This document shows, one piece after another, positions 36,767 through 36,943 of a stretch of 64,000 nucleotides of DNA. Within the stretch, counting starts at the first letter, position 1, and every line of letters starts with the position of its first letter. Below the pieces are notes generated by a model. It saw only the letters and a list, made by a program, of their open reading frames with translations. It made no database searches and was not told where the DNA came from. This stretch comes from Candidatus Xenobia bacterium (GTDB lineage: Bacteria; Vulcanimicrobiota; Xenobia; Xenobiales; QWHO01). Location: the NCBI GenBank assembly GCA_045863235.1, contig BTUM01000005.1, positions 122,912 to 186,911 of the forward strand, written 5' to 3'. The position numbers were made by a program, and so were the translations under genes.

Positions 36767-36943
36767 CCAACCCCTCCAGCCGCATCATGTCTTGATTGCG
36801 GCACTTGTTAGGAAACCTAAACATCTGTCCTGAAAAAATCCTTAAGAGTTTCTTCCACAGATGTTCACAGGCAGTTCACCCCTCGGACCCCCCGGGCCGC
36901 TAGGATAAGCCCCGGGACCGTATTCCACCGAGGAGCCAATTCC

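Follow-up and report, generated by a model that had tools for sequence, protein, structure and literature searches.

The closest described counterparts of the element reported here are the PHO boxes, which consist of direct repeat units of 11 nt, each with 6–7 conserved and 4–5 variable bases (PMC4415409). For S. coelicolor PhoP, the core of the unit has been given as GTTCAY(C); from two up to six or more units are located near the −35 region, and the conserved core unit nucleates the cooperative binding of PhoP (PMC2275107, PMC4415409). Binding of AfsR at the −35 region has also been mentioned (PMC4415409). For M. tuberculosis PhoP, cryo-EM has revealed tandem dimers on boxes that overlap the −35 region, with region 4 of sigma-A displaced (PMC11825685). 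The DNA examined here, a stretch of 64,000 nucleotides referred to hereafter as the window, has a GC content of 66% and comes from the Eremiobacterota/Vulcanimicrobiota. We know of no report on the transcription signals of this phylum, which has almost no cultured members.

The window contains three genes for subtilases with a MAM domain, S8_1, S8_2, and S8_3 (Table 1). They had been assigned as such in a preliminary description of this DNA, and Pfam agreed for all three: each product is composed of a fervidolysin-type N-prodomain, a Peptidase_S8 domain, and an InhA-like MAM domain. The protein identity among the paralogues is approximately 50–59%, and their upstream regions are, apart from the element described below, unalignable. 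Relatives were obtained by two routes. One is a genome-collection scan with S8_1, which led to MAGs of Eremiobacterota/Vulcanimicrobiota: L001–L003 carry S8_1, plus S8_2 where the contig extends far enough, at 95–97% protein identity to the window, and L004 carries orthologues of S8_1 (79%) and S8_2 (73%). The other is a protein search combined with contig look-up, which gave the S8_3 orthologue L161 (80% identity), from the same MAG as L004, and L162, a 77% relative; when metagenomes were scanned for orthologues of S8_3, nothing was recovered besides 99% relatives and distant homologues. The taxonomic labels of the near-identical MAGs are unreliable: L001, L003, L006, and L010 are labeled 'uncultured Burkholderiales', and others Armatimonadetes or Bipolaricaulis. 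It was also found that the N-terminus of the S8-MAM proteins is short and conserved (M-(x)-I-R-D or M-I-S…; at 36944, 40156, and 55353 in the window, at L006:9017, L163:6001, and L164:10001, and in others), and that no obvious hydrophobic signal peptide precedes the prodomain in the paralogues. This conserved N-terminus could be a non-classical secretion signal common to the family.

Each of the three genes is preceded by two GTTCAC-like hexamers in direct, tandem orientation with a period of 11 bp; a −10-like box, TAnnnT, comes after a further 21–22 nt. The three sites read GTTCAC-AGGCA-GTTCAC-N21-TAGGAT (S8_1), GTTAAC-ATTTC-GGTCAC-N21-TACACT (S8_2), and GTTCAT-CCACA-GTTTAC-N22-TATCGT (S8_3). 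The preliminary description had drawn attention to words shared by these upstream regions, and all of the words that it listed are present: CCACAG at 36855, GTTCACAG at 36863, GTTCAC at 36874, GTCACAG at 40093 (overlapping the S8_2 proximal hexamer GGTCAC), GTTCATCCACAG at 55262, and a further GTTCAC at 55293, with GTGA at 55305–8. The arms of its 9-bp inverted repeat are also there (AACATCTGT at 36820–28 and ACAGATGTT at 36857–65). It had overlooked two of the hexamers, the S8_2 distal GTTAAC (40081) and the S8_3 proximal GTTTAC (55273).

Table 1. Protease genes, repeat promoter sites, and associated genes in the window and in related loci
Feature	Locus	Position	Strand	Sequence or remark
S8_1 gene, subtilase with MAM domain	window	36944..39178	+	744 aa; Pfam PF00082, PF20773, PF22148
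S8_1 ribosome-binding site and GTG start (36944)	window	36930..36946	+	GAGGAG; kept in L001–L004
Conserved 9-nt block directly 5′ of S8_1 distal repeat	window	36854..36862	+	TCCACAGAT
S8_1 distal hexamer	window	36863..36868	+	GTTCAC; invariant in L001–L004
S8_1 proximal hexamer, 11 bp after distal	window	36874..36879	+	GTTCAC; TGTCAC in L004
S8_1 −10-like box, 21 nt past proximal hexamer	window	36901..36906	+	TAGGAT; TATTCT, same column, in L004
S8_2 gene, subtilase with MAM domain	window	40156..42399	+	747 aa; Pfam
S8_2 distal hexamer	window	40081..40086	+	GTTAAC; identical in L001, L002, L004
S8_2 proximal hexamer	window	40092..40097	+	GGTCAC; GGCCAC in L004
S8_2 −10-like box, 21 nt past proximal hexamer	window	40119..40124	+	TACACT; TAGACT in L004
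PD40 beta-propeller gene, 46 nt 3′ of S8_2	window	42445..45012	+	Pfam PD40
S8_3 gene, subtilase with MAM domain	window	55353..57590	+	745 aa; Pfam
S8_3 distal hexamer	window	55262..55267	+	GTTCAT; identical in L161
S8_3 proximal hexamer	window	55273..55278	+	GTTTAC; TGTCAC in L161
S8_3 −10-like box, 22 nt past proximal hexamer	window	55301..55306	+	TATCGT; TAGATT in L161
Weaker candidate site	window	28298..28342	+	GTTTGC-N5-GTTCAC-N22-TACACT; 8 nt before ATG of function-unknown gene
ECF-type sigma factor gene	window	174..821	−	Sigma70_r2 and r4_2
PD40 beta-propeller gene	L004	14801..15769		own repeat promoter at 14725..14768
S8_4 promoter (fourth paralogue)	L006–L008			GTTCAT or GTTCAA-N5-GGTTAC-N22-TATACT
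S8 promoter	L163			GTTCAA-N5-GTTCAC-N22-TAAGAT
S8 promoter	L164			GTTCAC, GGCAAC, GTTCAT phased at 11 bp; GTTCAT N21 from TATAGT
S8 promoter, first S8 gene	L165			GTTAAT-N5-GTTCAT-N21-TATGTT
S8 promoter, second S8 gene	L165			GTTAAC-N5-TTTCAT-N21-TATCTT
S8 promoter	L166			GTTCAC-N5-GCTCAT-N21-TATTCT
S8 promoter	L017			GTTCAT-N5-TGTAAC-N21-TATTCT
S8 promoter	L167			GTTAAC-N5-TGTTAC-N21-TACTAT
S8 promoters, two in each locus	L168, L169			hexamer/hexamer/TAnnnT geometry retained
S8 promoter	L010			GTTAAC-N6-GTTAAG-N20-TATGAT; inter-hexamer spacing shifted (12-bp period), total length equal

The intergenic DNA of L004 and L161 has largely diverged from that of the window, and islands remain. For S8_1, 16 nt (TCCACAGATGTTCACA, 36854–36869) are identical in L004, followed by ..CA..TCAC and then by TA...T. 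The S8_2 islands shared with L004 are GTTAACA..TCGG.CACAGCCTG and CCATG.ATA.ACT, and those of S8_3 shared with L161 are GTTCAT, G T..ACCAAC.GCCCC, and GTTA...T. All six promoters, three of the window and three of the orthologues, show the order of hexamer, 5 nt, hexamer, 21–22 nt, and TAnnnT, and both hexamers and the T, A, and T of the −10-like box lie in L004 and L161 at a spacing identical to that in the window. In L081 and L082, the −10-like box of S8_3 is TATGGT.

This comparison separated the words of the preliminary description into two groups. Those at the S8_1 repeats, at the S8_2 proximal repeat, and at the S8_3 distal repeat were retained, while CCACAG, the second GTTCAC, and the inverted repeat were lost. 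CCACAG is found in four regions versus 0.6 expected, an excess that is not significant after correction, and it is AACCAT in the S8_3 orthologue L161. The GTTCAC at 55293 and the hairpin at 55295–55308 occur only in the approximately 99% relatives, are absent in L161, and overlap the −10-like box. As for the 9-bp inverted repeat taken as an operator, two changes in its left arm are uncompensated in L002, and in L004 this arm is unalignable or absent; 64 inverted repeats of 9 bp exist in the window, versus approximately 37 expected by chance. These three features probably arose by chance.

Some other sequences in the same upstream regions deserve mention. At a distance of 10 bp from the next hexamer, TTCCAC at 36853–58 upstream of S8_1 is a possible third repeat that is out of phase. 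A pair of CTGAAA repeats with an 11-bp period is located just 5′ of the S8_3 repeats (55245–55261) and is kept in L161 (approximately 3881–3897) and L162, and a CTGAAAAAA tract is located 5′ of S8_1 (36830–36839). The CTGAAA repeats or the CTGAAAAAA tract may be an UP-like element or the site of a second factor.

The layout was also present 5′ of every further S8(-MAM) paralogue that was fetched from Eremiobacterota/Vulcanimicrobiota MAGs. In all, 19 non-redundant promoters were obtained from several genomes of 54–66% GC, and the hexamers, the spacing, and the −10-like box persist in them; L164 and L165 carry extra phased copies of the hexamer. The S8_4 promoters came from an earlier pattern scan and were part of the position weight matrix (PWM), so that they are not independent. 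An independent test is provided by L163–L169, which were fetched after the first PWM had been made, and by L017 and L010, which are absent from its training set. The assemblies that contain L081 and L082, the 99% relatives of the window, also contain L164 and L166; thus, the organism of the window has at least five such promoters.

How specific is this layout? GTTCAC occurs 19 times in the window on both strands, 10 times on the plus strand, and 3 of these 10 plus-strand copies fall in two of the three S8 upstream regions (3 versus approximately 0.05 expected). This word was picked post hoc among 4096 hexamers, so that the case made by the window alone is borderline and suggestive, and the related sequences were examined for this reason. 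A degenerate pattern written to cover the six sites of the window and the orthologues, GTTMAY-N5-KKYYAC(-N21/22-TANNNT), matches the three S8 upstream regions and nothing else on either strand of the 64 kb, and even the repeat pattern alone has an expectation of 0.13 chance matches in the window. With a PWM made from nine sites, the three window promoters scored 18–22.5, and the next best position in the window scored 11.8; a PWM match at 23391 was dismissed, since it is located inside a coding region of the minus strand and no −10 is correctly spaced from it. With a composite model made from the 19 non-redundant sites, the S8 promoters scored 21–27, and no match in 1.51 Mb of unrelated loci exceeded 21.6. 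Finally, the preliminary description had made enrichment over background hexamer frequency the measure of its motif, and such enrichment was observed: an unbiased count of 6-mers in 20 S8 upstream regions placed TGTTCA, TTCACA, GTTCAC, GTTCAT, and GTTAAC first, and all five were Bonferroni-significant. The ribosome-binding-site word AGGAGG ranked seventh and was not significant after correction.

These results bear on the explanation that the repeats are chance words, or a non-functional relic copied when the paralogues were duplicated. The borderline statistics of the window alone would suit it, as would the fact that CCACAG and the inverted repeat are indeed at chance level. Nevertheless, the layout is kept in 19 promoters of paralogues that have diverged to the identities given above and whose upstream regions are otherwise unalignable, and unrelated sequence yields no comparable matches. 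We consider this explanation extremely improbable. Conversely, a functional role of the motif as a shared promoter element appears almost certain. The layout is kept in the orthologues and in all examined paralogues, while the flanking sequences and the distance to the start vary, and this finding supports the co-regulation by a common operator that had been suggested earlier; the three paralogues are probably switched on together.

The architecture of the 19 promoters was then characterized. The information profile shows two peaks of 6–7 nt exactly 11 nt apart, with one common consensus, GTTCAC(A). The distal hexamer is nearly invariant at G1, T2, T3, and A5, and the proximal one is looser; two hexamers with one consensus, of which the distal is the better conserved, are as expected for two identical DNA-binding domains in tandem. 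In the downstream box, T1, A2, and T6 are invariant (19/19), and no conserved positions exist beyond the hexamers and the box. The repeats are always on the coding strand. The distance between the repeats and TAnnnT is constant (21–22 nt), whereas TAnnnT and the start codon are separated by anything between 6 and 62 nt, which indicates that the repeats are coupled to the promoter rather than to translation. TAnnnT would correspond to the −10 of these promoters.

The hexamers had been suggested to be either a common operator or a −35-like element. The comparative data support the former part, an operator-type shared site. The hexamers do not constitute a true −35, because the spacer is too long and nothing resembling TTGACA is placed at 16–19 bp: the best match there is 1–3 of the 6 positions in all 19 promoters. 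A TGn extension of the −10 was likewise seen in 0/19, and a sigma-70 scan of the three window upstream regions predicted no promoter. Several known architectures were rejected. A canonical sigma-70 promoter was ruled out by the lack of a −35 hexamer and of a scan prediction. Promoters of ECF sigma factors have a GGAAC-like or other single −35 and a CGTC-like −10, with a spacing of approximately 16–17 bp; this type was ruled out by the −10 of TAnnnT in 19/19, the spacing of 21–22 bp, and the duplicated upstream hexamer. The sigma-54 and MerR-type architectures were also rejected, as there is no GG-N10-GC and the spacer is neither conserved nor consistently palindromic. A cis-regulatory RNA (leader or riboswitch) was rejected as well, since a gathering-threshold Rfam scan of the whole window gave no family in the S8 upstream regions.

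An alternative, lineage-specific sigma factor might still read the proximal hexamer as a −35 across a spacer of 21–22 bp, with the distal hexamer as an enhancer-like contact. In its favor, the geometry of the three parts does not vary and is highly specific to a single gene family, the promoters of the phylum are uncharacterized, and an ECF-type sigma factor gene is located in the window (Table 1). However, the −10 is the housekeeping TAnnnT and not a CGTC-like ECF box, and a sigma factor reads one −35, whereas two to four phased hexamers are present, the more distant of which is the better conserved. The spacers are, moreover, outside the 16–19 bp range of known sigma-70-family promoters. Such a sigma factor is thus a doubtful candidate.

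The direct repeats lie 11 bp apart (12 bp in L010), in a constant register to the presumed −10 and without a good −35; an operator of the OmpR/PhoB type would be expected to have copies 10–11 bp apart from center to center, in such a register, and overlapping or adjoining the −35. Identical direct motifs one turn apart, placed over the −35 position where no −35 hexamer is present, are a signature of head-to-tail dimers of OmpR/PhoB-type proteins. This signature, together with the fitting literature, leads us to favor activation by an OmpR/PhoB-type winged-helix protein acting with the housekeeping sigma factor, a reading that we regard as somewhat more probable than all others together. It may be outlined as follows. 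Each MAM-subtilase gene would have an activator-dependent promoter in which two, and sometimes three or four, GTTCAC-like direct repeats one helical turn (11 bp) apart end 21–22 bp 5′ of a housekeeping-type −10 (TAnnnT), without a −35. When this −10 is placed at −12 to −7, the repeats would extend from approximately −50 to −34 and be centered near −42, the position of a class II activator, overlapping the place of the sigma region 4 contact. The likeliest ligand would be a head-to-tail dimer of an OmpR/PhoB-type winged-helix DNA-binding domain, belonging to a two-component response regulator or to a relative with the same domain. The dimer would bind strongly at the conserved distal repeat and cooperatively at the degenerate proximal repeat, and the bound dimer would recruit RNA polymerase in place of the −35 contact. 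One regulator could in this manner turn on the whole secreted-type S8(-MAM) protease family and some PD40 propeller genes. Both the activating role and the family of the binding protein are deduced here from the DNA sequence.

The same position would also suit a repressor operator, in which a protein bound over the −35 region of a weak promoter keeps the proteases off until a signal arrives: the site overlaps the −35 position, and OmpR/PhoB-family proteins such as PhoP repress some promoters (PMC11825685; see also PMC2691820). A repressor would, however, tolerate variable placement, and the strict register of 21–22 nt is what activator–polymerase contacts require; furthermore, a recognizable −35 or extended −10 for activator-independent transcription was seen in 0/19 promoters. 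Repression is accordingly judged unlikely, though less so than the alternative sigma factor, and activation by an OmpR/PhoB-type protein is retained as the preferred reading.

With regard to the regulator, Pfam scans of 38 ORFs of the window, which are nearly all of the predicted genes, gave an ECF sigma factor but no OmpR-type DNA-binding domain, and no OmpR-type regulator gene was found adjoining the examined paralogues. The sole matches of a tblastn search with E. coli PhoB were to the receiver domain of a hybrid kinase encoded beside S8_4 (L006 and L008). These outcomes count against the preferred reading. Searches with PhoU and PstB gave no match in the clade loci. This hybrid signaling protein of 744 aa, convergent with S8_4 (L008, 11904–14138 (−); also in L006), comprises a Ser/Thr kinase, a His-kinase, a receiver, and an Hpt-like tail.

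With regard to the targets, the PD40 gene of L004 has its own repeat promoter, and that of the window, located just 3′ of S8_2 (Table 1), is probably co-transcribed with S8_2. Sites of the composite model were also found 5′ of a 606-aa gene of unknown function (L164:4408(−)) and 5′ of a PilZ gene (L167:6699). The weaker candidate at 28298–28342 is conserved at L001:984 and L002:892 (composite scores of 19.7–20); its window copy stays under the threshold owing to a G in hexamer 1 in place of A5, which is invariant elsewhere. It may, with some uncertainty, be a regulon member that is leaderless or nearly so. A fourth subtilase gene of the window (31902–33305, +; Peptidase_S8, no MAM), which lies just 5′ of a gene for a 967-aa coiled-coil-like protein of unknown function, has no repeat promoter according to the composite model.

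Several other features were recorded in the window. The only Rfam matches in its whole length are a SAM riboswitch and four tRNAs. The SAM riboswitch (RF00162, 70 bits; 51400–51511 (−)) is directly 5′ of a minus-strand operon for a Cys/Met PLP enzyme (50105–51394) and homoserine O-succinyltransferase (49063–50115), and the four tRNA genes form a cluster at 7670–8039 (−). A terminator-like hairpin with a T-run (39184–39209, +) immediately follows the stop codon of S8_1 and extends into the beginning of a histone-deacetylase-family gene (39205–40071). At 8747–12285 (+), genes for a radical-SAM/SPASM protein and then a sulfatase are found, which look like an anaerobic sulfatase-maturase pair.

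The formula GTTCAC-N5-GTTCAC-N21/22-TAnnnT is a precise model for genome scanning, and three uses of it can be considered. One is that it can define the regulon in complete MAGs. Another is that it can lead to the cognate regulator, by way of OmpR-family genes that are autoregulated and carry the same boxes. The last is that it can serve to test the MAM-subtilases as one coordinated response, such as nutrient scavenging, phosphate starvation, or attack on other cells.

In comparison with known systems, the element most resembles the PHO boxes of actinobacterial PhoP. Both have a period of 11 nt and two to several units per promoter, with one well-conserved unit beside degenerate ones, and both would lie over or near the −35 of activated promoters without a good −35. 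The hexamer equals the S. coelicolor GTTCAY core, a consensus that is actinobacterial and may not be that of the present host, and positions 7–11 of the repeat differ: unlike in the Streptomyces PHO boxes, they are not YYR(G/C)G. The host also differs, being a member of the Eremiobacterota/Vulcanimicrobiota, as do the targets, which are subtilase paralogues and PD40 genes instead of pst, pho, or phosphatase genes. Since no OmpR-type regulator gene is present in the window or the flanks, and no pst or phoU in the clade loci, filing the element as a PHO box is not justified, though it would work like one. We also weighed jointly two more special readings, a lineage-specific promoter class and a PhoP-like phosphate-starvation regulon that uses the actinobacterial GTTCAY code; the pair seems improbable, to about the same degree as the alternative sigma factor. 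The lineage-specific class may have a dedicated sigma-like factor as its reader, or else a regulator in permanent association with the polymerase, and could pair a two-part upstream element with the spacer of 21–22 bp, dedicated to the expanded, non-classically secreted MAM-subtilases.

Activation by an OmpR/PhoB-type protein, the reading preferred here, also places the element beside other operators of this family. The E. coli PhoB pho box and OmpR-family operators likewise have direct repeats one turn apart, and contact with sigma-70 region 4 replaces the −35 (PMC4415409). The core of the E. coli pho box, CTGTCAT, differs from the present one, and the proximal hexamer of the S8 element, which ends 21–22 bp from the −10, is placed approximately 4 bp further 5′ than the pho box. 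This offset, like the difference at positions 7–11 noted above, counts against the preferred reading. Similar repeats are those of ArcA (GTTAA-N6-GTTAA) and of GlnR and AfsQ1 (GTnAC-N6-GTnAC), and the proximal hexamers GGTCAC, TGTCAC, and GGTTAC fit the latter GTnAC. The activators of the SARP/AfsR type have an OmpR-like DNA-binding domain without a receiver and bind heptameric direct repeats of 11-bp period that overlap the −35; these repeats are TCGAG-like, are approximately 8 bp from the −10, and control antibiotic clusters of actinomycetes. The S8 element shares with them the 11-bp period at the −35 and differs in sequence, in the distance to the −10, and in targets. Judged by these likenesses, the element would be a fresh instance of a well-known kind, the activator-dependent promoter with tandem direct repeats, set before the genes of an expanded protease family in a phylum with hardly any cultured members.
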